DNA of 32,114 bases. Source: a virus. Its lineage: Duplodnaviria; Caudoviricetes. The translations under genes were made by a program, and so were the position numbers. The stretch is from the IMG/VR virus record IMGVR_UViG_3300037420_000387, positions 1 through 32,114 of that record. The stretch is one strand, 5' to 3'. The notes beneath the pieces were generated by a model. That model did no database searches, was not told the origin of the DNA, and saw only the letters and a program-made list of their open reading frames with translations. Below, piece by piece: positions 12,001-32,073 of this stretch; the first letter of the stretch is position 1, and every line of letters starts with the position of its first letter.

Positions 12001-12415
12001 AGAGCGGTTGTTCTATTTTAACGTTGGTATCAACTTGGGAATTTTCCTTTAATCCCAATTCGCGGGCTATAAAGTTGTCTTTTAAGATGCCAATTGCGGC
12101 AAGTTCAAACTTCTGCTGATATATCGTATCCTCTATATCTTGTATGATAGTAGAGAAATCATTTGAACAAACCTCTTTGAATTGCCGAAAATAGGCTGTA
12201 TTACAGCGTAAATAAAGACATAAGCCTTGCATTGTGAACGGTCGTTGAATCTTTTGCTTACCACCAAATGAACGGGTATCTGTTATAGGATTATCTTCGC
12301 ACCATTGGAAATATTCACAGGCGGCCTTCCAAAGTAGTTCAGGTGTGGCAAAGAGTTTATCCCTTCCATGCTTTGATCGTAGCTTCCAAAATTGATTCCC
12401 CGCGGGCGCTCCCAT
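11975..12415 (-). CDS. terS: Terminase small subunit (P22 gp3-like)
   Basis: MGAPAGNQFWKLRSKHGR..FATPELLWKAACEYFQW and NFIARELGL; start revised to ATG 12415. Confidence 0.92.
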   Translation of the reverse strand: MGAPAGNQFWKLRSKHGRDKLFATPELLWKAACEYFQWCEDNPITDTRSFGGKQKIQRPFTMQGLCLYLRCNTAYFRQFKEVCSNDFSTIIQDIEDTIYQQKFELAAIGILKDNFIARELGLKENSQVDTNVKIEQPLFGKEDSED

Positions 12416-12421
12416 AATGAG

Positions 12422-12453
12422 TAAAATTACCAAATATTATTTACACTCCCAAA
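12422..12453 (-). promoter_or_regulatory. Putative late promoter for terS
   Basis: TTTG-N20-TAATTTTA, one mismatch from the Bacteroidota TTTG-N19-21-TAnnTTTG consensus. Confidence 0.5.
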
Positions 12454-12462
12454 ATGATTTTT

Positions 12463-12487
12463 ATTTATGAATTTTATTCGGAATTTT
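12463..12487. repeat. Single-unit copy C of the dispersed motif
   Basis: 21/25 identity to 9051-9075. Confidence 0.6.
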
Positions 12488-12656
12488 ATTTTTCCTTTTC
12501 GGGTGGTTTAACTTCGACAAAGTAATCGCATTTCTTTTCCCCTTTCGGCGGCGCGAAGTCTGCGTAACTCTGATAAAGCCCTGGAGTAGCTTTGTATCTA
12601 AAGCAATCTTCTTTTGAAGGGCATGAATGATTACTACACATTGATATGTCTGGCAT
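12486..12656 (-). CDS. 56-aa Cys-rich phage protein (missed by ORF track)
   Basis: MPDISMCSNHSCPSKEDCFRYKATPGLYQSYADF...KCDYF, a common small phage protein pattern. Confidence 0.8.
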   Translation of the reverse strand: MPDISMCSNHSCPSKEDCFRYKATPGLYQSYADFAPPKGEKKCDYFVEVKPPEKEK

Positions 12657-12669
12657 GGCTTTAAAGGTT

Positions 12670-12849
12670 TTACTTTATCAAAATATAAAATATCTCGCCG
12701 TCGGTCTTGCCCGTTTTGAATACTCCACTTTGCACCGCCATTTCGCAGAGCGTCCGCGCCTTTATCCTGGTTAATCCGAATACCCGGCAAATATCATCCA
12801 CTGTTATGAACTCAGGGTTTAGCTCTTTTATTTTATCGAAGGCATTCAT
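12670..12849 (-). CDS. 59-aa winged-HTH-like protein (missed by ORF track)
   Basis: MNAFDKIKELNPEFITVDDICRVFGLTRIKARTLCEMAVQSGVFK...; ATGA overlap with the upstream gene. Confidence 0.7.
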   Translation of the reverse strand: MNAFDKIKELNPEFITVDDICRVFGLTRIKARTLCEMAVQSGVFKTGKTDGEIFYILIK

Positions 12850-13223
12850 AGGTTTACTGTTAGTTCTGATCCGGTTAATGCGAAGTAGAGGTTTTGTAGT
12901 TGGTGAAGGTATTTAATACTTACTCCGAATCGCTCTGTGCCGTAAAGTAGTCGCAAATCATCGATGCCAGATTGTTCCTCAAGTTGAAAGTCAAATCCAT
13001 TCTTTTGAAATTTACTTCGATATTCAAGATATTCAAACCCTGCCTTCTCCATTATATCAAGGGTTAAATGGATTGGTTGTAATTCATTGCATTCAGTTTC
13101 AGGGTCCCAAAAGTCAGGCTGGGTGAGTAGCACTACATTGCCGCCTACCTGAGCTATTATTGATTTCCTTCCCTGATGGTTAAGCACAAAGTTTCCAATT
13201 CTCAACTCGTTTTGACTTATCAT
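12846..13223 (-). CDS. Conserved Bacteroidota phage protein (YopX-like)
   Basis: ELRIGN, PIHLT..I.EK.GF, IKYLHQLQNLYFALTG motifs. Confidence 0.8.
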   Translation of the reverse strand: MISQNELRIGNFVLNHQGRKSIIAQVGGNVVLLTQPDFWDPETECNELQPIHLTLDIMEKAGFEYLEYRSKFQKNGFDFQLEEQSGIDDLRLLYGTERFGVSIKYLHQLQNLYFALTGSELTVNL

Positions 13224-13330
13224 TCCTTTTTGTTTAAGCTGTTAATACACTTTTATTGCGAGATTTTTTATCCAGCGCGTGACGAAAGTTGCCTCGTCAT
13301 AATTTATCAGGCGATTTTTTGCCATTTTAA

Positions 13331-13579
13331 TAAAAAACAAATGGGCGGTAACTCTCCCGTTGGCCTCTCGGCTGTTGGTGTCTGCCAACTCCGCCACCTA
13401 CTGTTTCCCGGCAACCCGGACTGATCATGAAGCTTATAGCCTCGGAACTGTTGCTGCGCTATCAGAAGGGCTCTTATGTGCCGTAGCTATCGGACTCCAA
13501 ATTTCGGCGATTATCGCTGGCTTCATCTTTTATCGGCCAGCTACGCTTCGTCCCCCAGCGGTACTTCATTTGTTTTTTA
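13331..13579 (-). ncRNA. Candidate structured RNA (or MITE-like element) closed by a perfect 13-bp inverted repeat
   Basis: TAAAAAACAAATG / CATTTGTTTTTTA flanking a GC-richer interior with several hairpins. Confidence 0.5.
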
Positions 13580-13608
13580 GTCTTTCAATATAATAATATT
13601 ACCTCAAA

Positions 13609-13953
13609 TTATTCCAATCCTAAGAATGTTTGATGTTTTTCAAGCATATCAGATAGCTCCTCATCTGTTATATCCTTTGGCTCTTTGCGTGTGAAATAAT
13701 CATCGCCTACCGTGTTGTAAAACAGTTTACGGGTGTCCTCGACTAAATCCAAGTACATCTTACGCTTTTTCTCAAACCGCTCATTGACAGTGATCATTCT
13801 TTTTAGCAGATCAATATTCTTTTGGGAGATAGCATCAGAAAGCTCTTTATATTGTTCAAAAGATAGCGTTAGAGTTGCGCCGTCGGTAATTTGAATGTGA
13901 ATAGAATCCAAAGCAGGCTGCCCGTTTAAATATTCAGCGTTAGTAATTTTCAT
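13609..13953 (-). CDS. Hypothetical protein
   Basis: ORF in operon orientation. Confidence 0.7.
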   Translation of the reverse strand: MKITNAEYLNGQPALDSIHIQITDGATLTLSFEQYKELSDAISQKNIDLLKRMITVNERFEKKRKMYLDLVEDTRKLFYNTVGDDYFTRKEPKDITDEELSDMLEKHQTFLGLE

Positions 13954-13977
13954 GTTATTTACTTAAATATAAGCATT

Positions 13978-14505
13978 TTAGTGTTTATTTACGATAGCTT
14001 TTTTAATTAATTCTATAGTTTCTGCCGTTAAAAGCTGGCTCGGGGTGACCTGTATCAAATACCACCCGTTTGCAGTTAAAAGGTTAAGCTTAGCCATGTC
14101 CCGACTGATCCCCTTTCCTGAGCTGTGACCGCTTAAACCTTTTTTCCAGATCCCGCCCTGACATTCGACTGCAACCTTGACCGAGGGCAGGGCGTAGTCA
14201 AGTTTATAGCCTTTCTCTTGACTAAAACGATATTCCGGCCATACCTCTATCTTTAACTCAATTTCAAGCAGCCTGGTAAACTGATCACAGTGCTTTGCTT
14301 TGTTTGCTATGTTTAAATGATCGTTGGTATCATAAGTCCTTTTTAAGCCCTTAGAACGATTTTGTTTCTTTTTGGTACTATGTGCCGTCTGATCCTGTAA
14401 TCGTTTAGCCTCGTTTGAATTTGGCGGGTAATAGGTGCCGTTATGCTCCTGCCATCCACGATCAATGCAGTCTTTTATTATTGCCTTTGCCTGGGCGGTC
14501 TTCAT
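13978..14505 (-). CDS. PD-(D/E)xK endonuclease (DUF559/Vsr-like)
   Basis: EYRF, LDYALP, VAVECQGG, GH, RDMAKLN...GW motifs. Confidence 0.8.
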   Translation of the reverse strand: MKTAQAKAIIKDCIDRGWQEHNGTYYPPNSNEAKRLQDQTAHSTKKKQNRSKGLKRTYDTNDHLNIANKAKHCDQFTRLLEIELKIEVWPEYRFSQEKGYKLDYALPSVKVAVECQGGIWKKGLSGHSSGKGISRDMAKLNLLTANGWYLIQVTPSQLLTAETIELIKKAIVNKH

Positions 14506-14506
14506 T

Positions 14507-15049
14507 TTACTTTTTTATACTGTTCAAGGCTTCGTCTACGCAGTCTCTTAGCTTCATAAGATCAACTCTGATGTGATCGGCAACTCCGTTTTTGGTATGC
14601 TCCAATATGTAAATTTTATTTTGCGCATATTCCAACGCCTTAGTCAACCTTTCGATGGTGGTGGATTGGGCGGAGGCATATACTTCCATACACTTAACCA
14701 GTGTAGCCCGTTGCCGTTCGGTAAAGTTTGCCCACGATGCAGGATATTGTTTCCAATAAAAGCTACTAAGGATTTCCTCCGCCGTACCTGTTACTGCCAT
14801 CTGCTGTTTTTGCCATTGTACACCTGCTATGAAATAGTCTGTTAATAGCGTTTTGGCTAATGGGTTGCTTTTCTGAAACTCTTTTGCCGCTTCATCTACA
14901 TCGGCTGTTACTAGTGGGGACTCGCGGTCAAGGTTGTAGGCCATATCCATTAGGTTCATTGTGCTGTTATAAAACTCCTTTACCGTAATGGGATAACGCT
15001 CTTTAGCTAATTCCTCAAATCGCTTGTATAACTCTTGTTTCTTTTCCAT
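14507..15049 (-). CDS. Hypothetical accessory protein
   Basis: ORF tiles the operon; FIAGVQWQ motif of phage accessory proteins. Confidence 0.7.
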   Translation of the reverse strand: MEKKQELYKRFEELAKERYPITVKEFYNSTMNLMDMAYNLDRESPLVTADVDEAAKEFQKSNPLAKTLLTDYFIAGVQWQKQQMAVTGTAEEILSSFYWKQYPASWANFTERQRATLVKCMEVYASAQSTTIERLTKALEYAQNKIYILEHTKNGVADHIRVDLMKLRDCVDEALNSIKK

Positions 15050-15064
15050 GTTAGGGGGTGGGGA

Positions 15065-15280
15065 TTAAATCCAAACTTCGAGTAGGCAATTATCGTCATC
15101 TGCTGACCTGCCCAAGTTGACAAACGTCTCAGGTATACTTTTCCTTGCTTCTGATAAGGTATCTGTCACGCAAGATGGTTCATCTTCTGGAATAACTTGA
15201 CCGTTTTTAATTTCAAATCCTCTCACAACAAATTTACCGGGATAGTCCGTCGGGCTTTTGTAAACAGCATATTGTTTCAT
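15065..15280 (-). CDS. Hypothetical phage protein
   Basis: VYKSPTDYPGKFVVR...DD..LLEVW. Confidence 0.75.
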   Translation of the reverse strand: MKQYAVYKSPTDYPGKFVVRGFEIKNGQVIPEDEPSCVTDTLSEARKSIPETFVNLGRSADDDNCLLEVWI

Positions 15281-15383
15281 ATCATTTTTCCTTTAAGTGT
15301 TACTTTTTATTGGGTGGTTAAAATGGCAATTCGTGTATCCAATCATGGAGTACTGATTCTATTGGTTGTGTTTTCATATCCTT

Positions 15384-15719
15384 TTACTTTGCTGTTGGGG
15401 TTAATAATCTCTTGCGTTTAGGTTCATTGGCATTGCCGGGGAAACATATATCACGGCTTATAATTTCAGTATACCCACAATAGCCGGTTTCGTCTGACGC
15501 CGCCCTAAGATTATATGATTGCTTGCCTAATAATATTTTAGCAGGGTCAAATGAAGTCCCTGAATGAATAGCAACCCATCCCCAATCAGGCAACAAATAC
15601 GCTATCTTCCACATGTAGTAATTCCGCTTTCGGCTTCTGAAATGAGGAACTTTAAGGATGTCTCCATTTCGGATTTCCCAACCGTTCTTGTCGTAATATG
15701 TATCGATTTTGTCTTTCAT
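15384..15719 (-). CDS. Hypothetical protein with a YopX-like motif
   Basis: DKNGWEIRNGDILK. Confidence 0.65.
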   Translation of the reverse strand: MKDKIDTYYDKNGWEIRNGDILKVPHFRSRKRNYYMWKIAYLLPDWGWVAIHSGTSFDPAKILLGKQSYNLRAASDETGYCGYTEIISRDICFPGNANEPKRKRLLTPTAK

Positions 15720-15751
15720 ACTTCTTTCTCCATTTTAACCCACCCTAAACA

Positions 15752-15976
15752 TTAAGCAACAAGTCGTTGCAATGGATGAGTTAGGGGTGAATTGTGATTT
15801 AACTCTGATACTTTCGAACCGCACTTAGGACAATACCAGTAATAAAACCACCTACCAAAGTCAGTATCTCTAATGCGTTTACACTCTGATAAATCGCCTG
15901 TCCAATCGCATTGAACTAATTGTGTAGTCGATGGGCATTTTGAAATTATATATCCCGTTTTTGTTGGTGTGTTCAT
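15752..15976 (-). CDS. Small zinc-ribbon protein
   Basis: C..CDWTG and CPKCG. Confidence 0.65.
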   Translation of the reverse strand: MNTPTKTGYIISKCPSTTQLVQCDWTGDLSECKRIRDTDFGRWFYYWYCPKCGSKVSELNHNSPLTHPLQRLVA

Positions 15977-15985
15977 TGGGTGGGG

Positions 15986-16243
15986 TTATTTTATGAATTG
16001 TTCGATGTCCACTTTGTTGATTTCAGTTATGCCACGCTTGATACCTTGTTGAAACAGATCGTCATCGGTAGTTTCAGGATGCTCTATATAGTCAGCTATT
16101 GCCGCTCCACATTCTATTTTCACCGCTTCAGCTACTTGCCGGGCGTATTCCTGCATGGCTTCAATAGTTAATGGCCTTTTACTGATAGCTTCTTCTTCGG
16201 TGTATTTTAATTTTGAAGCTATAATTTGTGCTGCTGTTTTCAT
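15986..16243 (-). CDS. Hypothetical protein
   Basis: ORF tiles the operon. Confidence 0.7.
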   Translation of the reverse strand: MKTAAQIIASKLKYTEEEAISKRPLTIEAMQEYARQVAEAVKIECGAAIADYIEHPETTDDDLFQQGIKRGITEINKVDIEQFIK

Positions 16244-16247
16244 GGTA

Positions 16248-16442
16248 TTACTTTATAGGGTGATTTAATTTCTCACAATCAGAAGCCGCTATAAACATGA
16301 AGGGCTGTCCCTGGTCTATTGCCACGCACCTATCACCAAAATTATCTATCTGTTTGGTAACGATAAATCTTTGACCTCTGTAATCTGAGTACTTTTTACC
16401 GTTTGGAATGGTCGGATTTATTCGAATTTCAAGTACTTTCAT
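16248..16442 (-). CDS. Hypothetical protein (start revised to MKVLEIR)
   Basis: ATG 16442 with A-rich leader avoids a large overlap. Confidence 0.55.
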   Translation of the reverse strand: MKVLEIRINPTIPNGKKYSDYRGQRFIVTKQIDNFGDRCVAIDQGQPFMFIAASDCEKLNHPIK

Positions 16443-16473
16443 ATCTTTTTTGGTTTTATCCCTTGAGAGGGGG

Positions 16474-16668
16474 TTAATCTTCATCTTTTTCAGGGAAATC
16501 ATCATTACCTGCAAATTCTTCGTCTTGAAGGTCTGCCGATACAAAACTGCTACACATTTCTGCAATATCCGCTTTGGTTACCTTATGATTTTTAGGATAG
16601 CCATAGTAATTTCGGTAGCAAGTTTTTAGCGTTTCGAAATCCTGATCTGTTTCAATTGTTATTTTCAT
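16474..16668 (-). CDS. Hypothetical protein
   Basis: ORF tiles the operon. Confidence 0.65.
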   Translation of the reverse strand: MKITIETDQDFETLKTCYRNYYGYPKNHKVTKADIAEMCSSFVSADLQDEEFAGNDDFPEKDED

Positions 16669-16695
16669 TTTTCTCCCCCTTTTAATTATTGTTAC

Positions 16696-17052
16696 CTATG
16701 CTACTACCTCTAAAGTTGCTGATTTGTGGATGTCGGAGATGTTGATTTTATCAATGATTTTATCGGGAACTTCTATGACAAATTCTATTTCAGGCAACCC
16801 AAGTCTTGCTTTAGGTCTATCTGATAAGTCATCAAATTCTTTTATAAATTCTTGCGCCACTTCTGGTAACGGTATGGGTTTCGTAATTAGATCAATTCCC
16901 ATAGGATATAAATTCCATGCATGAGTTTCGCTATCCGGGAAAATATCCCTTACCGCTAAGGCTATTGCGCAATTTTTAAAAACATCTTTATCTCTTTTAC
17001 ACCACATCGCCTTGCGAATGATGTCTTTGGTTACTTTGATTTTAAGCTTCAT
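16696..17052 (-). CDS. Hypothetical phage protein
   Basis: IKVTKDII..CAIALA..LP.VA..FI..FD pattern. Confidence 0.75.
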   Translation of the reverse strand: MKLKIKVTKDIIRKAMWCKRDKDVFKNCAIALAVRDIFPDSETHAWNLYPMGIDLITKPIPLPEVAQEFIKEFDDLSDRPKARLGLPEIEFVIEVPDKIIDKINISDIHKSATLEVVA

Positions 17053-17104
17053 AATTTTGGTCTGTTGTTACCTATTGAATAGGATGTGGTTAAACTGATT
17101 TTAA

Positions 17105-17296
17105 TTATTCGGTATCAATAATGGTGCTATCAAGATATCTGTAAGCATTGTTTTCGTCTCTAAAATACATTTCTGACGGATCGTCTTGCTTTAACTCACA
17201 CCAAGTCGAATGAAATAGAACGTGAGTTTTTTCGTCATTTACTTGGAACGACTTGCCACCTATATGGCACATATAATTTTTAGTTACTTTCATCAT
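17105..17296 (-). CDS. Hypothetical protein
   Basis: ORF in operon orientation. Confidence 0.6.
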   Translation of the reverse strand: MMKVTKNYMCHIGGKSFQVNDEKTHVLFHSTWCELKQDDPSEMYFRDENNAYRYLDSTIIDTE

Positions 17297-17333
17297 CTTT
17301 GGTGTTTTACTGTTTTATATTGATTGGGGGGTT

Positions 17334-17514
17334 AAATAGCTGAACGGGGTATCGCGCCCCGTCATGGATTGGCATTCTTACTGCGAGCTGTCGGCATTTC
17401 CAACACGTGGTGAGCGGTAGTAACTCCTTCCCGGCTTACGTAAAAGAGGTTTAACCGCTTAACTTGACCTTTTGCCTTTTACTTTTTTCCATGATTCTAA
17501 AGATTCAGCTATTT
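17334..17514 (-). ncRNA. Candidate tRNA-like (tmRNA-TLD-like) structured RNA
   Basis: 11-bp terminal stem AAATAGCTGAA/TTCAGCTATTT, 7-bp stem TCATGGA/TCCATGA, and a T-arm-like CGGGG-CGCGATA-CCCCG abutting the 3' strand. Confidence 0.6.
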
Positions 17515-17567
17515 CTTAAGTTTAGTTTCTCTTAATACCCCGGCTGTATTTAAGCTATGCCTGGATT

Positions 17568-17879
17568 TTATAACTGAATAACTTTTACAGTCTCAGCATC
17601 TATTCTATCTTGCTCATCTGCCGCTAATTTTGCCATTAGGAAACCGGCACATGGCTTATCCGCACATTTATAGTCTTTCGTATGGCACATAAATTCGCCA
17701 CCGTTCATAAGCTTATCGGCGGCATTATCGGCTGCAAGAAAGTAAAATAAGTTTCGTTCCTGCTCCCATTTACACGCGCACTCGCTGCACATCTTGCCGC
17801 AGTCAATACCTTTCTCTTTTGCAATCTTAGCGCCCTTTTTAGCTAAGTCGCTTAATGGCTTTGCGTAACTGACTATCAT
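17568..17879 (-). CDS. Cys-rich putative metal-binding protein
   Basis: CSECAC, FMCH, PCAG. Confidence 0.7.
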   Translation of the reverse strand: MIVSYAKPLSDLAKKGAKIAKEKGIDCGKMCSECACKWEQERNLFYFLAADNAADKLMNGGEFMCHTKDYKCADKPCAGFLMAKLAADEQDRIDAETVKVIQL

Positions 17880-17880
17880 T

Positions 17881-18090
17881 TTATTGCCAATGATTAAAAA
17901 TCAATTCTCCGTCACACTCTGAATAATTCACTTTTACTCTCGCTGCGACATGGTCAGGTGTTATATGCCCATCACTCTCAGAAACCTGCTCCAACTCAAT
18001 TGTTGACGAAAGGCTGCTGTTGTTTTTGATAGCCTGCTTTGCATTTTCGATAATTCGCTCCATCATACTGATGCTGATTTGAATTTTCAT
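17881..18090 (-). CDS. Hypothetical protein, first gene after the internal promoter
   Basis: ATG 18090 lies downstream of a consensus promoter. Confidence 0.7.
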   Translation of the reverse strand: MKIQISISMMERIIENAKQAIKNNSSLSSTIELEQVSESDGHITPDHVAARVKVNYSECDGELIFNHWQ

Positions 18091-18109
18091 TTCCGTTTGA
18101 TTTTATATT

Positions 18110-18185
18110 CAAATGTACAATTAATTATTTATACAAACCAAATATTTTGTATAATTTTTTATTTATGCATTTAATAGTATATTTG
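18110..18185. promoter_or_regulatory. Divergent promoter pair with palindromic operator
   Basis: Minus strand TTTG(18142-18139)-N21-TACATTTG(18117-18110); plus strand TATATTTG (18178-18185); inverted repeat TTATACAAA-N8-TTTGTATAA (18129-18154). Confidence 0.7.
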
Positions 18186-18188
18186 TAC

Positions 18189-18407
18189 ATGGATTTCAAA
18201 GAATATCTACTTACACAAACCGACTTTTCATTAAAGGCTCTCGCTTTTCGTATGTGGCCGGATAACAAAACCGCCGATCATTATCTTAGCGTTAAACTTC
18301 ATAACCTTAATAATCGCTCATTTACTGAAAAAGATGAGAAGCTCGCCCGAAAGGCTCTTGCCGAATTAGGAATTCATTTAACTAAGGTCGCCAAGCAAAA
18401 ACCCTAA
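18189..18407 (+). CDS. Small HTH-like regulator/antitoxin-like protein (start revised to MDFKEYL)
   Basis: SLKALAFRMWP..ADHYLSVKLH..RSFT pattern; the only convincing plus-strand gene besides cI. Confidence 0.65.
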   Translation: MDFKEYLLTQTDFSLKALAFRMWPDNKTADHYLSVKLHNLNNRSFTEKDEKLARKALAELGIHLTKVAKQKP

Positions 18408-20681: not shown

Positions 20682-21683
20682 TTAATATTTTAGTCTTTCT
20701 GCTATTGCCTGGACTACAGGGATGCTTACACCGTTGCCACATAGCCTATAGCGTTGTAAATCGCTTATTTCTTTAATTTCACCGGCATAATTCCCGTACT
20801 TAGTCCAGTTGTCAGGTAAACCTTGTCCTCGTTCATATTCAAGTGGGGTTAAATCCCTGAATAAATCCTCTCCTAAAAAAACACACTGATTTAAGCTCGT
20901 TTGGAAGGTTTGCGCTATTTGTTTACCTACCCTGCCTCTACGCGTTTCACTGTAGGGAAATGATGTGTTTATGCTGTCTCCTATTTCTGCAATTTCATAC
21001 CCCGAACTTGTTGCGGATTTAACTTTTATAATTGTATAATCACTGCCTAAGCGGCTTTTGGCTGACCGGGTGCCGAATGTACATGCAACTCCTTCTTTCG
21101 AATATTCGCCCTTCGTAGCATCGACTGATATTGCTTCTCCGATAGGAAATATTTGTCTGCTACCTGATCCTCTAAGATGTCCGACAAAGAATAACCGCTC
21201 TCTATTTTGGGGTAAAAACCAGCGTGTATTAAGAAGCTGCATTTCAATGTCGTATTGTGGCATACTTTCATTAAGGTAGGAGAGTACTTTAAAGCTTTCA
21301 ACGATGTCAATGCCTTTGTTGACACTGAGCAACCCGGCCACGTTTTCAGCAACGAAATTCCGAGGTTTAAACTTGTCGATAATGTTAACTGCTTCGTAAA
21401 GTAAGCCGCTTCGTGTACCTGACTGTTGTCCTTTGCGTTTTCCAGCAATAGAATTATCCTGGCAAGGCCATCCGAAAGTAAAGAGGTCAAGGTCGGTGAT
21501 GATTCCGCTTTGGCAAATAGTGTCAATTGATCCTGCATAGATTGAGTTTGGAAAATTGTATGAATAATTAGCTATTGCGTGTTTGTCTATCTCTGAGTAA
21601 TAACATTTATCGAACTTCCATCCGGCCCGTTCAAAAGCAAGGTGAAAACCGCCATAACCTGAAAATCCGTCTAAGTAGTTCAT
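20682..21683 (-). CDS. dcm: DNA (cytosine-5)-methyltransferase (orphan)
   Basis: Motifs I FSGYGG, IV GWPCQ, VI ENV, VIII QNRER, IX RDLTPLEYERGQG, X GNGVS. Confidence 0.95.
   Translation of the reverse strand: MNYLDGFSGYGGFHLAFERAGWKFDKCYYSEIDKHAIANYSYNFPNSIYAGSIDTICQSGIITDLDLFTFGWPCQDNSIAGKRKGQQSGTRSGLLYEAVNIIDKFKPRNFVAENVAGLLSVNKGIDIVESFKVLSYLNESMPQYDIEMQLLNTRWFLPQNRERLFFVGHLRGSGSRQIFPIGEAISVDATKGEYSKEGVACTFGTRSAKSRLGSDYTIIKVKSATSSGYEIAEIGDSINTSFPYSETRRGRVGKQIAQTFQTSLNQCVFLGEDLFRDLTPLEYERGQGLPDNWTKYGNYAGEIKEISDLQRYRLCGNGVSIPVVQAIAERLKY
21047..21538 (-). CDS. Candidate overprinted +1-frame gene inside the C5 methyltransferase
   Basis: 163 stop-free same-strand codons; begins MQDQLTLF; contains SLSDILEDQVADKYFLSEK..MLRRA. 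Confidence 0.6.
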   Translation of the reverse strand: MQDQLTLFAKAESSPTLTSLLSDGLARIILLLENAKDNSQVHEAAYFTKQLTLSTSLNLGISLLKTWPGCSVSTKALTSLKALKYSPTLMKVCHNTTLKCSFLIHAGFYPKIESGYSLSDILEDQVADKYFLSEKQYQSMLRRANIRKKELHVHSAPGQPKAA

Positions 21684-25903: not shown

Positions 25904-28000
25904 TTATACTGTCACCAATTCTTTTGATGGCTTATAATAAGCCTGGAAACGAACAGTGTCTTTATATTCGGGTGATTTAATCAAAGCGTCTCCTGCGCCA
26001 GCTAATGACTCAGCTCCGGCCTCATCCAGCACCACACGGCTATCCGCTTCTTTTGGTACTCTGAAACAAATCTGAACAGGAAAGTTAACCTTTGCATCAC
26101 CAGTTATCACTTTAACAGAGGCGCGTTGTGTTGCTGAAATAATCCTGAAACCGGTTGACCGGCCTTTCTGTAATAACACCCGCAGATTTTCCTCCAATGA
26201 TTTCATTTCGCCGGTATTTTTGAGGCTCATCTTTGGATTTCCGTTCGCATAGCATCCGGTTTCAACCATTTCAAAGGTCTTTAACTCTGCGCCCTTCCTT
26301 GACATTGCTACTGCATCGGCGAACTCATCAAATACAATTAGCGTTTTTTGTTTTTTTCCTGATTTAACAAGGTTATTCATGTCTTCAACCAGATTAGCCA
26401 TCTGAGTTTCGATTTCAAGTATCTCATTATAGACCTCGACGCCGCTGCCTTCGTATTCTGTAAATTCATATTTTGGGTCGAAAATAACTATCTTATCAAC
26501 CCTGGCGTGTTTGGCGTACTCAATGGTAGATTTGATAGATACAGACTTTCCGCTACCGGTAGCGCCGCAAATAAGCACGTGAGGGGTAGAATGATTATCC
26601 AGGTCCCAAATGATTGTATTATCGTAGTTATCCTTACCAAGTGGGATTCTCATGCCCTGCAAAGCGGATGGGTCGAATATCAAATCCTTTTCACGCTTCT
26701 TAGCAAACTCGATGCTTACATAAGATTTGCCATTGTGAACTACCAGGTCGCTTGTGATACGCACCGCTGAAACGTCCAATGCATTTGCTATGTCCAGTTT
26801 GTGAGAGTGTACAGAAGTGATCTTTACGCCAGCAGACACTTCCAATAGGTAAGTATTACTTGAATAACCGTCAAATTTATACGCCACTTTAACAATTATG
26901 CCGAAGCTGCGTAATATATGCTCAATTTTTTGTTCTTGTGTCATGTCTTTATTGCTTAGGTCGTACTGAATAAATTCAGCAGCATTCTTTTGAAACTCTT
27001 TAATTACTTTCGGGTTGATCGCCGCTACCGAGGCGTCACGGATCTTCTTAAGCCGCTTTTGTATAAGTTCTTTTTTAGATGGCGCTATGTCGAACTCTTC
27101 AACCTCTGCCATCATTGTTTTTGCCCAGAACTCGTATATCTCTGACTTATCGATAAAGTTATCCGATTCGTTGATCAGGTAAACATAATCCGGGTTTTGA
27201 ACCGCTTCCAGCATCCGCTTTAATGGCTCGTATAAAAGAGCTTCGTAAAGGCGGCGAACATCTTTATCGATCTTAATTTTGAAGTTGTTAAGCTGCGCTG
27301 ATCCGTCTCGGTTAGTTGATATTTTATTCTCTACAAACCAAACCTCATCGATTTCATATCCGGTCTTTGCCTCGTAAAGATTAACGTAGGTGATTGCCTG
27401 AATGCCAATCGATAATTTAAGTTCTTCCTCATCAGAGAATTTAGTTTTCGATTTATGATCAATTATGGCCAGTTTCCCGTTATTTAACTGGACTACAAGG
27501 TCTATTTGCCCGTGACACGGCATAGGGATATCTACTCCGTTAATACTTAGCCATTCGTCGCAATAAACCTCTACGTCAACTATTTCTTTTATCTCGTCAA
27601 TATAGGTCCCAATCTCACCACAGAAGTTATTCAAAAGAGCGGTAGCGTCCTTATACGCTTTCTGACGGCTATCTTCAACCGTTGGTGTGGTCTTTTGAAG
27701 TTTCCAATAGTTGGCCGGGAAATCTTCTATGTAACCAAAAGCAATCCTTTCCAAATCGGGCAACTCCAAAGTTGTTCCTGCTTTTTTATCGTTGAAATAA
27801 GCTTTTAAAGCTTCATGGTACGCGGTACCGGCCACCGATGAAGCCGAACTTTTGCCTTTGATATTGTAGATATACCGCATTTCAAAGGCTTTCTCATGCC
27901 TGGCAAACTGTGAGAGTTTTGAATAACTCCAGCTTGTTATCAGGAAGTTTGAAAGCAGGTTATCTACTTGGTCTGGTGTATAGGTCTTGTATATACTCAT
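25904..28000 (-). CDS. PD-(D/E)xK (RecB-like) nuclease fused to an FtsK/SpoIIIE motor domain
   Basis: N-terminus: SYSKL, GTAYH, GQIDL, IIDHKS, QAITY. C-terminus: FtsK-alpha-like segment, IPLGKD, PHVLICGATGSGKS, FDEFAD, GRSTG..ATQR, DSRVVLD..GAESL.G.GD. Confidence 0.9.
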   Translation of the reverse strand: MSIYKTYTPDQVDNLLSNFLITSWSYSKLSQFARHEKAFEMRYIYNIKGKSSASSVAGTAYHEALKAYFNDKKAGTTLELPDLERIAFGYIEDFPANYWKLQKTTPTVEDSRQKAYKDATALLNNFCGEIGTYIDEIKEIVDVEVYCDEWLSINGVDIPMPCHGQIDLVVQLNNGKLAIIDHKSKTKFSDEEELKLSIGIQAITYVNLYEAKTGYEIDEVWFVENKISTNRDGSAQLNNFKIKIDKDVRRLYEALLYEPLKRMLEAVQNPDYVYLINESDNFIDKSEIYEFWAKTMMAEVEEFDIAPSKKELIQKRLKKIRDASVAAINPKVIKEFQKNAAEFIQYDLSNKDMTQEQKIEHILRSFGIIVKVAYKFDGYSSNTYLLEVSAGVKITSVHSHKLDIANALDVSAVRITSDLVVHNGKSYVSIEFAKKREKDLIFDPSALQGMRIPLGKDNYDNTIIWDLDNHSTPHVLICGATGSGKSVSIKSTIEYAKHARVDKIVIFDPKYEFTEYEGSGVEVYNEILEIETQMANLVEDMNNLVKSGKKQKTLIVFDEFADAVAMSRKGAELKTFEMVETGCYANGNPKMSLKNTGEMKSLEENLRVLLQKGRSTGFRIISATQRASVKVITGDAKVNFPVQICFRVPKEADSRVVLDEAGAESLAGAGDALIKSPEYKDTVRFQAYYKPSKELVTV

Positions 28001-28947
28001 GGCAGTATGGTTGCTTGTTGACCGGCCTTTAGTTGATCTTTCTTGTTGCTAACTTTTAACGCGGTAAGCTCCTCCTCTTTTAATAAATACAGGTCGGTTA
28101 ACTCCGGCGCGTCAGTGTCCAGATGAGGGCCAAGCGCTTTCAACTCTTCCAGTGATTTAGCCTCGGTGATAGACTTAGCCAGCGCATCCAAATCAATTGT
28201 GTTATCAACATAGCTGATATCTTCCGTCTCGGCATCATTAATGACGGCCTGATCAGATACGATAGCGCGCTGCATTTCTATTGAAAGAGGCGCATCTTTT
28301 GACAGGTTGAGTTTTGTAATGGTCTTTCTTGCCATACCGTCGAAATCATCTTTCCACAGACCATATCCTTTTTTATAGGTTTGGCTGTACTTCATACCGT
28401 GCTCCCTTAGTTCTTCGACGGTTTTATAAAGCGTCTTGCTAAAGCCATTCAAAAGCTCGAAGTAAGAAGCATACCCGATAATTGGAGTTTTTAGCCGGGC
28501 TTCCGGGTCTTCTATCCATTTGAATTTTATATCTCCGGTCAGGCGGTCGTATTTTTCAATCTCTCCCTGGCGCACATCTGTTTCATTTATTTTTCTGAAT
28601 TGGCCAGTACGGAAAGCCAATTGCTTAAAGCCCTTAGCGCCTACCTGGAATTGAGCAACCACCTGCCATGTATCCGGCTGGCCGTTAGTTCCCTTAATTT
28701 TGTTGTTATAGGGTACGATCCATGCAAAGCCAAGATTATTATTTAAAGGAAGGTCCAGCGTTGCTGCAGTTGCCGCTGCCTGAAATACACTGTTAGGGTC
28801 GGCATTTGCCAGCATAGCGTTTTGTGAAACGATCTGCAAGACCGATGTAATAAATCCCTGCGCCCTCTTCCCTAAAAGTTCCGAGAACTTTTGCTGGACA
28901 TTTTCCTGCGCGAACAGGGCTTTTGCTGTTAATTGTTGTTGTGCCAT
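27997..28947 (-). CDS. recT: RecT-family single-strand annealing recombinase
   Basis: LPLNNNLGFAWIVPY, AQFQVGAKGFKQLA.RTGQ, W..DFDGMARKT. Confidence 0.93.
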   Translation of the reverse strand: MAQQQLTAKALFAQENVQQKFSELLGKRAQGFITSVLQIVSQNAMLANADPNSVFQAAATAATLDLPLNNNLGFAWIVPYNNKIKGTNGQPDTWQVVAQFQVGAKGFKQLAFRTGQFRKINETDVRQGEIEKYDRLTGDIKFKWIEDPEARLKTPIIGYASYFELLNGFSKTLYKTVEELREHGMKYSQTYKKGYGLWKDDFDGMARKTITKLNLSKDAPLSIEMQRAIVSDQAVINDAETEDISYVDNTIDLDALAKSITEAKSLEELKALGPHLDTDAPELTDLYLLKEEELTALKVSNKKDQLKAGQQATILP

Positions 28948-31290: not shown

Positions 31291-32073
31291 GTGACTGAAA
31301 ATCAAAGATTAAAAATTATTAGAAATAGTTTAGGCAAGACTCAAACCGAATTCGGAAAGGTTTTCGGCCTGAAACAGGGGAGCTATGCAGACATAGAACG
31401 AGGCAAGGTTCGGGTATCAGGTGACATAAAAATCGCTCTTGAAAAAGAATTTTCTATAAATATAGAATGGCTCGAAACCGGCGAGGGTGATATGGTTATG
31501 ACGGGGAAGCTTGGTGAACGGAACGCCAAGTATGGCAAATCTGAGGATAACACCATACTAATAGGCCGCGTACCCGCCCCGGGCGAAGAAACGCAGATGG
31601 TCCCGCTTGGAAATAATCAATTCGGCTTAACTGTTCCCTTAATACCCATAAGAGCATACGCCGGATATATGGATAATTTCGGCGATCCTGAATATTTAGA
31701 AACCCTCGATAAACATACTGTGTCTGTTATAGGAAATTTTGCCGGAAGATATTTCGCCTTTGTAGTGAAGGGAGACAGTATGGAAAACTGGTCGTCGGAA
31801 GAAATGGCCCGGAAATCTATCCCCGAGGGAACTATAGTGACGTGCCGGGAAATACAGCGCCACCACTGGATGAATAAGTTACACCTGCACCGCTTTCAAA
31901 ACTATGTCATAGTTACCGACGACGGTATTATTACTAAGGAAATCACCGAACACAATACAATTGAGGGTTATATTATCTGCCATTCACTGAATCCTAAATA
32001 TAAGGACCGCAAAATAATGCTCGACGATTGTAAGCAAATATTGAACGTAGTAACAAAAACAATTCCTGAATAA
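31291..32073 (+). CDS. cI: CI-like repressor (XRE HTH + S24 peptidase)
   Basis: RLKIIR..LGKTQ.EFG..IERG, AYAG cleavage-site-like, VKGDSM catalytic Ser, IITKEI Lys; divergent from the lytic operon. Confidence 0.92.
   Translation: MTENQRLKIIRNSLGKTQTEFGKVFGLKQGSYADIERGKVRVSGDIKIALEKEFSINIEWLETGEGDMVMTGKLGERNAKYGKSEDNTILIGRVPAPGEETQMVPLGNNQFGLTVPLIPIRAYAGYMDNFGDPEYLETLDKHTVSVIGNFAGRYFAFVVKGDSMENWSSEEMARKSIPEGTIVTCREIQRHHWMNKLHLHRFQNYVIVTDDGIITKEITEHNTIEGYIICHSLNPKYKDRKIMLDDCKQILNVVTKTIPE

Follow-up and report, generated by a model that had tools for sequence, protein, structure and literature searches.

Genomic setting of the element

The window, by which we mean the whole 32,114-nt stretch of DNA that was analysed, is a linear viral record. 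Its genes include a repressor (at 31291), RecT, methyltransferases and terminase genes and, for replication, an initiator and DnaB. The stretch from the methyltransferases to the terminase holds consecutive small ORFs without assigned function, and among them, on the minus strand, is a tRNA-framed RNA element (17510-17337; 174 nt when read in the 7/5 register). In genomes, the small terminase subunit has its best relatives in Pedobacter, Mucilaginibacter and Chitinophagaceae records (70-62%), and the host of the window phage is therefore likely a member of the Sphingobacteriaceae; the carriers of the element are soil phages, likely of Mucilaginibacter-type bacteria. About 600 nt upstream of the RNA there is a promoter-like site of the Bacteroidota type on the same strand (18110-18141, at 18117; TAnnTTTG with an upstream TTG). 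It lies within an inverted repeat shared with a divergent gene at 18147-18407. Between the divergent genes, this region (18111-18172) has paired promoter-like sites and a 27-nt inverted repeat, and it is possibly a second regulatory switch; the 86-aa gene at 18147-18407 has six relatives and no Pfam or PHROG match. Elsewhere in the window, a 698-aa fusion of a PD-(D/E)XK nuclease and an FtsK-type ATPase (25904-28000, minus strand) adjoins RecT, and a cytosine methyltransferase gene (20682-21683, minus strand) is overlapped in another frame by a 163-aa ORF (21047-21538, minus strand) that itself matches a methyltransferase family.

The element occupies a slot with boundaries that recur in related phages. 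The upstream boundary (17514-17546, minus strand) is common to four relatives, in three of which a protein gene comes next, and the downstream boundary together with the leader of the next gene (17297-17335, minus strand) is common to the same relatives. A search with the flanks found three further phages with both boundaries, in which the slot is filled by an ORF of 89, 117 or 72 aa that begins a few to some tens of bases past the upstream boundary and stops at the downstream one. Among five records with both boundaries, the RNA is found in two and a protein gene in three. The same exchange was seen in soil and rhizosphere contigs (runs X6, X10 and X2, of which X2 is possibly the sample that the window came from), with joints from 17323-17339 to 17514. 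Because the slot swaps the RNA for a protein gene in the records as well as in these contigs, we concluded that the RNA is a cassette which a phage may have or lack and which ranks as a gene. The ORFs downstream differ among the four carriers, no gene was found that co-occurs with the RNA across carriers, and a search of genome contigs with the slot leader gave no match. The surrounding region (12400-18100, minus strand) is an array of small ORFs with short boundary sequences (e.g., 17094-17065 and 16699-16667) that are common to relatives while the genes between them change, as in a cassette-shuffling region.

Structure of the element

The sequence motifs named in the original prediction are all present in 17514-17334 on the minus strand, and the fold proposed there was recovered: the minimum free energy and centroid structures of 17334-17514 concur on the acceptor stem, the TCATGGA/TCCATGA helix and a hairpin with a 5-bp stem and a 7-nt loop. 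The region folds at -54 kcal/mol (z -3.34), a stability equalled by 1 of 200 shuffles, and in a 291-nt context the pairing probability of the frame helices is mostly 0.9. In tRNA numbering, the predicted mature RNA begins with the 7-bp acceptor stem and the 9-nt linker, continues with helix P2 (strands P2 and P2') around an insert of 119 nt, and ends with a T arm, the acceptor 3' strand and A73 (all coordinates that follow are on the minus strand). The acceptor stem is formed by 17504-17510 and by 17337-17344, the latter including the discriminator A73, and CCA is not encoded. A D stem is absent; the linker that replaces the D arm (17495-17503) forms no stem, and it keeps U8 and one G in the three members of the family (the window copy and two homologues, G410 and G326, described below). 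We infer that this G is the partner of C56 in a G-C56 elbow contact. P2 (17488-17494 with 17362-17368) stands at the anticodon-stem position and closes the insert with 7 bp. The T arm (17345-17361) has a 5-bp stem and the loop CGCGATA.

Within the insert, hereafter the cargo domain (17369-17487), helix P3 closes a multiloop with hairpins P4 and P5. P3 pairs 17473-17476 with 17374-17371; its GGC/GCC pairs are invariant and it extends to 5 bp in G410. P4 (17413-17459) carries the invariant loop motif TAAGCCG at 17438-17432, and P5 (17389-17405), with five invariant pairs and the loop AAAYG, is preceded by the invariant linker CACCACG. The insert stems AGCGGT/ACCGCT and TGTTGG/CCGACA that had been predicted were seen in the single-sequence fold; the GGCA/TGCC stem was missing from that fold but is present in the three-sequence consensus. 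The predicted outer AAAT/ATTT extension is found in the window copy, whereas the homologues keep only the pair between positions -1 and 73. This pair is present in all three members (U-A, U-A and C-G), so the acceptor stem may have 8 bp, with the RNA then starting at 17511 instead of 17510. The 13-codon ORF reported in the insert is also there (17451-17492). It is kept in G410 with altered residues and lost in G326, and we judged it incidental, being lost in one of the three members. Only one pseudoknot candidate, of 5 nt, was found in the window copy.

How often such a structure arises by chance was gauged with locally shuffled windows. A perfect 7-bp acceptor stem plus a 5-bp T stem with C56-R57-A58 occurred in 37 of 1000, and the same pattern with an inner helix in 1 of 1000, both with a descriptor drawn up after the element had been seen. 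In relaxed form the acceptor-plus-T pattern by itself is not rare. A looser fold of this kind lies antisense to RecT at 28754-28899 (plus strand); it was judged to be a chance occurrence and gauges the false-positive rate of the pattern. Taking these results together with the homologues and covariation described below, we regard the element as almost certainly a real, conserved phage RNA gene.

Homologues and covariation

The original prediction had proposed a search for homologues and for compensatory changes among them, and two diverged homologues were found. A model built from the single window sequence picked out the G326 copy: among 151 genomes from the genus to which a Mucilaginibacter record belongs, one matched (78 bits, E 2e-17). 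This copy is 65% identical to the window copy. It lies in a prophage-like region of a single-contig genome of the genus Mucilaginibacter, with an exonuclease gene on one side and genes for a Holliday-junction resolvase, a replication initiator and DnaB on the other; in a blastn comparison of this region with the window, DnaB was the only match. G410 is a complete 71.6-kb phage, the copy in which was found with a motif common to the window and G326 copies. When the 32-kb window was compared with G410 by blastn, the RNA was the sole match (86% over 175 nt), and the match stops at the acceptor stem. A further record, G001, has an identical copy with other genes on either side. Each record holds a single copy, and no variant letters were seen inside the element in the DNA sequencing runs that were mapped (8 of 11).

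Other searches returned little. Blastn against 50,697 annotated phages gave 6 short chance matches, and one scan of viral sequences gave the identical copy only, another the identical copy and one chance match. A viral motif scan gave four matches (the known copy, G410 and two chance matches), and a viral hairpin scan gave no new member among the matches listed (119 of about 160). In metagenome contigs a T-arm pattern had 6 matches and no homologue, although this pattern would miss both known homologues. Model R1 found 3 matches in 151 genus genomes, one of them real (G326), and in 151 family genomes 2 weak matches, both plain hairpins; model R2 found nothing in 151 genomes from the genus to which a Pedobacter record belongs or in a set of 41, and model R3 nothing in 151 class genomes. 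A pattern search gave 22 places in 20 of 229 genus genomes and matches in 3 of 401 family genomes, with G326 the only real one in each case. These genome searches are samples, and their outcome reads as 'not found' rather than 'absent'. No RNA sequencing run holding the element was among the matches listed. Within the material searched, members of the family are few, and those known so far all come from phage or prophage DNA. We found no description of it in the literature, of which the viral structured-RNA catalogue PMC10690425, covered in part, may yet include it: five motif spellings gave no match in six of its supplementary files. The portions of PMC4810235 and PMC7609411 that were consulted hold nothing on phage RNAs like the element.

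All 19 frame pairs hold in all three members, and 11 of them are compensatory (4 of 7 in the acceptor stem, 4 of 7 in P2 and 3 of 5 in the T stem, where G52-C62 and G53-C61 are invariant). Counting every helix, both partners differ in 14 of 41 pairs, versus 0-4 in controls with the partners slid by 1-3 columns; one of the 14 (P3, columns 38/137) is a gap-placement artefact and is to be dropped. In the three-sequence alignment 96% of the cells pair. The basal stem of P4 has two compensatory pairs, and its upper stem is weak, with 83% paired, three broken pairs and no compensatory one; the pairs of P3 and P5 are invariant and are neither supported nor refuted by covariation. These counts come from three distinct sequences, two of which are 86% identical, in an alignment fitted to the model and with a test that is not tree-aware. 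Folded alone, the G326 copy is no more stable than its shuffles (z -0.49), and the fold inside its cargo differs.

The T loops of the three members are CGCGATA, TGCGATT and TTCGATA, all with C56, G57, A58 and U59, and they form a ladder from the window variant to the canonical loop. The window loop is without U54 and U55, and the window linker is without GG. G55 does occur in real T loops: among the 119 viral hairpin matches listed (of about 160), 51 are tmRNA 3' ends by pattern, and all 8 of those tested were confirmed by Rfam as alphaproteobacterial-type or permuted tmRNA. The loop CGCGATA is also present in a viral tRNA-like gene at L249:239-324 (plus strand), which has G3-U70, an Ala anticodon, a long variable arm and an encoded CCA; this gene scores just below the Rfam cut-off and was missed by ARAGORN.

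Frame and cargo are conserved differently

In the three-sequence alignment 22 of the 56 frame columns (39%) are invariant, compared with 81 of 119 in the insert (68%; 64 of 85 in its core), and identity between the window and G326 copies is 46% for the frame but 73% for the insert. The difference has a Fisher p of 0.0005, a value that treats the columns as independent and overstates the case. Unpaired and paired positions of the insert are conserved alike (50 of 75 and 31 of 44), and the invariant unpaired motifs include TAAGCCG and CACCACG. In the frame, even the positions that serve for amino-acid identity vary, the pair 3-70 being C-G, C-G and U-A and the discriminator A73 or G73. Since the frame drifts in sequence and the insert is conserved, the pattern indicates that the frame is selected for its shape and the insert for its sequence. 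The contrast suggests that the insert is what functions, and it tells precisely which positions to mutate.

Comparison with known RNA classes

Rfam and ARAGORN, both proposed with the original prediction, gave no match for the window copy (Rfam with E up to 10) or the G326 copy. The prediction had described the topology of a tmRNA tRNA-like domain in an RNA that is no tmRNA, and this description holds. As in the tRNA-like domain of tmRNA (RF00023, RF01849), the element combines an acceptor stem with a T arm, does without a D stem and has a helix that opens into a large domain; alphaproteobacterial-type phage tmRNAs also have a G55 loop, TGCGATA. The hallmarks G3-U70, GGAC connector and TYGAC D-loop end were nevertheless found in none of the three members, against 29 of 29 sampled tmRNAs; we take the GGAC/TYGAC region to be the SmpB contact region. 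No tag frame ending in Ala-Ala is conserved, there was no tmRNA call by Rfam or ARAGORN, and the element has about half the length of a tmRNA. The absence of an encoded CCA, which had been counted against a tmRNA, was borne out but says little, as only 4 of 29 tmRNA genes sampled in the phylum encode it. The GAC preceding the T arm of the window copy is not conserved. Reading the element in an 8/4 register, with a GAC connector like that of tmRNA, was rejected since it suits the window copy but neither homologue, and descent from tmRNA by way of GCTGA/CAGC at the ends was rejected, this pair not being kept in G326.

With tRNAs (RF00005, allo-tRNAs included) the element shares a 12-bp acceptor-T helix, a 7-nt loop, G53-C61, C56, R57 and A58, and the D stem and the 7-nt anticodon loop are missing in all members. 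ARAGORN found no tRNA genes in the window, in G410 or in the 80 kb around the G326 copy. The closest resemblance is to the phage tRNA-like stable RNAs, which are likewise phage-encoded, with an acceptor and T frame, an oversized middle and no anticodon. T4 species 1 (rnaC, 139 nt, NC_000866 70908-71046) is similarly oversized, with a 5-bp T stem and 7-nt loop followed by an acceptor-like strand, but its loop is the canonical TTCGAAT and it lies in a tRNA cluster, whereas the present RNA stands alone in an array of small-gene cassettes. The function of species 1 is unknown, and in the part of PMC9697503 consulted T4 species 1 and 2 are given as annotated stable RNAs without known function. RNA1 and RNA2 of T5 (annotated as 'tRNA-like stable RNA with unknown functions' in AY543070) also have a tRNA frame in which a large domain replaces the anticodon arm; they differ in having a D-arm hairpin, an extra arm before the T arm and canonical loops, and the present RNA has neither arm. 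Model R3 found no homology in the T4 and T5 regions with E up to 10. The present family is D-armless, with frame and cargo under different constraints; it is new and resembles the T4 and T5 RNAs in shape only. In it the two halves of a T4/T5-type RNA are split, the frame being free to change while it keeps pairing and the inner domain being conserved.

The CI RNA of phage P4 is, like C4 RNA, a phage RNA cut from a longer transcript. The C4 antisense RNA of P1 and P7 resembles the present element as we propose it, in being released from a longer transcript by host RNase P (a title cited in PMC4919922); it differs in that the present RNA has no Rfam match, no complementary target that we could find in the window or in 15 stretches of related phages, and a position outside the immunity region. 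In the engineered tRNA scaffold, as presented in parts of PMC3753655, a foreign RNA domain is carried on the anticodon arm, and the cell processes and shields the tRNA frame. That scaffold is artificial and has a D arm, whereas the present RNA is natural and D-armless and its processing is predicted. A MITE or other non-autonomous DNA element was rejected, as neither sequence-conserved terminal repeats nor multiple copies were found.

Proposed function and alternative explanations

The best explanation that we can offer, held tentatively and with slightly less than even confidence, is an accessory phage RNA gene in which the frame drives excision and protection and the cargo acts in trans, likely as a decoy for a host protein. 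Excision as a discrete RNA is the firmer part and is probable. The RNA would be transcribed within the operon from the upstream promoter-like site; its 12-bp acceptor-T helix would then fold, host RNase P would cut the 5' side at 17511/17510 or one base upstream, and trimming of the 3' end after A73 would be followed by CCA addition. We propose these processing steps because of the conserved shape, the non-tRNA substrates of RNase P (tmRNA and phage regulatory RNAs, in the sections of PMC4919922 covered) and the engineered scaffolds, which protect an RNA inserted at the anticodon arm (PMC3753655, in part). The G326 host encodes a type A RNase P RNA. The cargo displayed by the resulting stable RNA would serve during infection as a decoy, acting in trans by binding to a host protein. 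That the cargo acts in trans on a host protein is close to a toss-up, leaning slightly towards no; we favour it because the conserved loops have no pairing target, the neighbouring genes change and the RNA swaps with small proteins. A counter-defence or host-takeover role would be our best guess, from genomic position and analogy. A more specific version is a natural tRNA-scaffold cassette, exchanged with small proteins in one gene slot, in which a D-armless, shape-only frame delivers an RNA that inhibits an enzyme of host defence or RNA processing, possibly RNase P itself; it is rather unlikely as it stands.

An RNA excised in the same way might instead base-pair, through its invariant single-stranded motifs, with a host RNA or a phage mRNA, which we consider unlikely. 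Beside the invariance of TAAGCCG and CACCACG, this explanation can draw on the P4 loop, which is complementary to conserved sequence in the 3' region of the G326 host's RNase P RNA (over 10 nt in the window copy and 9 nt in G410, with a 7-nt core invariant in the three members), but 12, 35 and 49 of 200 shuffles do as well, placing the match within chance, and the target was picked post hoc. In the window and 15 stretches of related phages no complementary target above chance was found, the longest antisense matches being 11-12 nt with E of 2 or more; this speaks equally against the C4/CI-type antisense RNA of the original prediction, and the three phages have almost no other common sequence, which makes a common phage target unlikely. 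The whole tRNA shape could also be the function, the RNA acting as a mimic to sequester a tRNA-handling protein (SmpB, EF-Tu, a synthetase or a defence nuclease active on tRNA ends), with the cargo only structural. Such a mimic would fit the topology of tmRNA's tRNA-like domain as well as the other aberrant tRNA-like RNAs of related phages, some of them D-armless and without cargo, and a precedent is available in mycobacteriophage DS6A, the TLD-only tmRNA of which is proposed, in the consulted part of PMC4131195, to titrate SmpB. It is quite unlikely here, as the three hallmarks seen in every sampled tmRNA are missing from every member, the pair 3-70 and the discriminator vary, and conservation is higher in the cargo than in the frame. 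The tRNA decoy suggested earlier, taken as a target for anticodon nucleases, is not supported, given the same varying identity positions and the lack of an anticodon loop.

A cis element would act on the downstream genes as a processing mark where the transcript is cut, as a ligand sensor or as an antitermination structure. The RNA is always in the sense orientation inside the operon, no minus-strand terminator is nearby and excision would divide the mRNA anyway; against these points, it replaces an entire protein gene in the slot and is missing from close relatives, the downstream ORFs differ in all four carriers and no riboswitch family matches. The pure processing signal of the original prediction fares no better, the insert being more conserved than the frame, and punctuation alone would not keep 119 nt of insert. 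We rate a cis role improbable. An interrupted tRNA gene, the insert being an intron or self-cleaving element that leaves a small tRNA, would account for the insert at the anticodon-loop position, and is very improbable with no D stem, no conserved anticodon that could be reconstituted, varying identity bases, no group I, group II or ribozyme family match, and a blank ARAGORN intron search in the window, G410 and the G326 prophage. Equally far-fetched is a last group of readings, in which the element is a small mobile piece of DNA bounded by terminal inverted repeats, a tRNA in decay or a product of chance folding. The window copy does have a perfect 11-bp terminal inverted repeat and the RNA moves between unrelated phages, but each record has one copy, the repeat is only 8 bp in both homologues, and the ends differ in sequence among the members and still pair; the compensatory changes largely refute all three possibilities, and the shuffle control (1 of 1000) points the same way.

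Returning to the accessory RNA gene, the RNA behaves as a selectable gene in that it is exchangeable with protein genes and is the sole sequence common to two otherwise unrelated phages. As one copy sits in a prophage of a single-contig genome of the genus Mucilaginibacter, induction may offer a way to test how the RNA is expressed and processed and what its partners are. Should the cargo prove to be a decoy, RNA-based counter-defence would extend beyond the CRISPR-repeat mimics, which are the form of it described in the part of PMC10651486 consulted.

Other tRNA-like RNAs and modules in related phages

Further tRNA-like RNAs were observed in the relatives. A distinct tRNA-framed RNA of 146 nt with G3-U70 and a canonical T loop is found at L098:8369-8224 (minus strand), which equals L017:2934-2789; it immediately follows the promoter region that in a close relative corresponds to that of the window, and it has a z of -3.3 and a weak tmRNA score (E 0.034). 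The RNAs at L100:14593-14430 (minus strand, 164 nt) and L030:100-227 (plus strand, 128 nt) have an expanded anticodon domain in a layout like that of T5 RNA1, with a D-arm motif that we presume to be of the Leu type. Shorter D-armless RNAs of 68-75 nt, with canonical T loops and no cargo, are present at L036:3457-3524, L038:10988-11055 and L028:4749-4823 (all plus strand); against the frame of model R3 the L036 type reaches 25 bits, and these three may be frame-only relatives. In run X7, a 155-nt contig on window positions 17526-17568 has a tRNA-Leu-like 5' start after a slot-like leader, a weak observation with a depth of 3 and four mismatches. A second, short tmRNA-like gene of about 305 nt lies near the terminase genes of a Mucilaginibacter record (L108:18248-18550, plus strand; G008:C39); it is above the Rfam cut-off and was missed by ARAGORN.

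A non-coding module of about 125 nt occurs at L011:1925-2050, L014 (minus strand, about 340-210) and L098 (minus strand, about 8090-7970); it ends in a hairpin with a TTTCGAC loop, lies just upstream of the slot in three relatives and has no Rfam match. A recurrent hairpin followed by TTTGGCAGTA-like letters was also observed in intergenic positions of six phage records (L011:1918, L014:352, L098:8100, L100:9088, L028:4656 and L284:8288), in one case directly after the G326 copy of the RNA, and is possibly a terminator, an antitermination site or a processing site.
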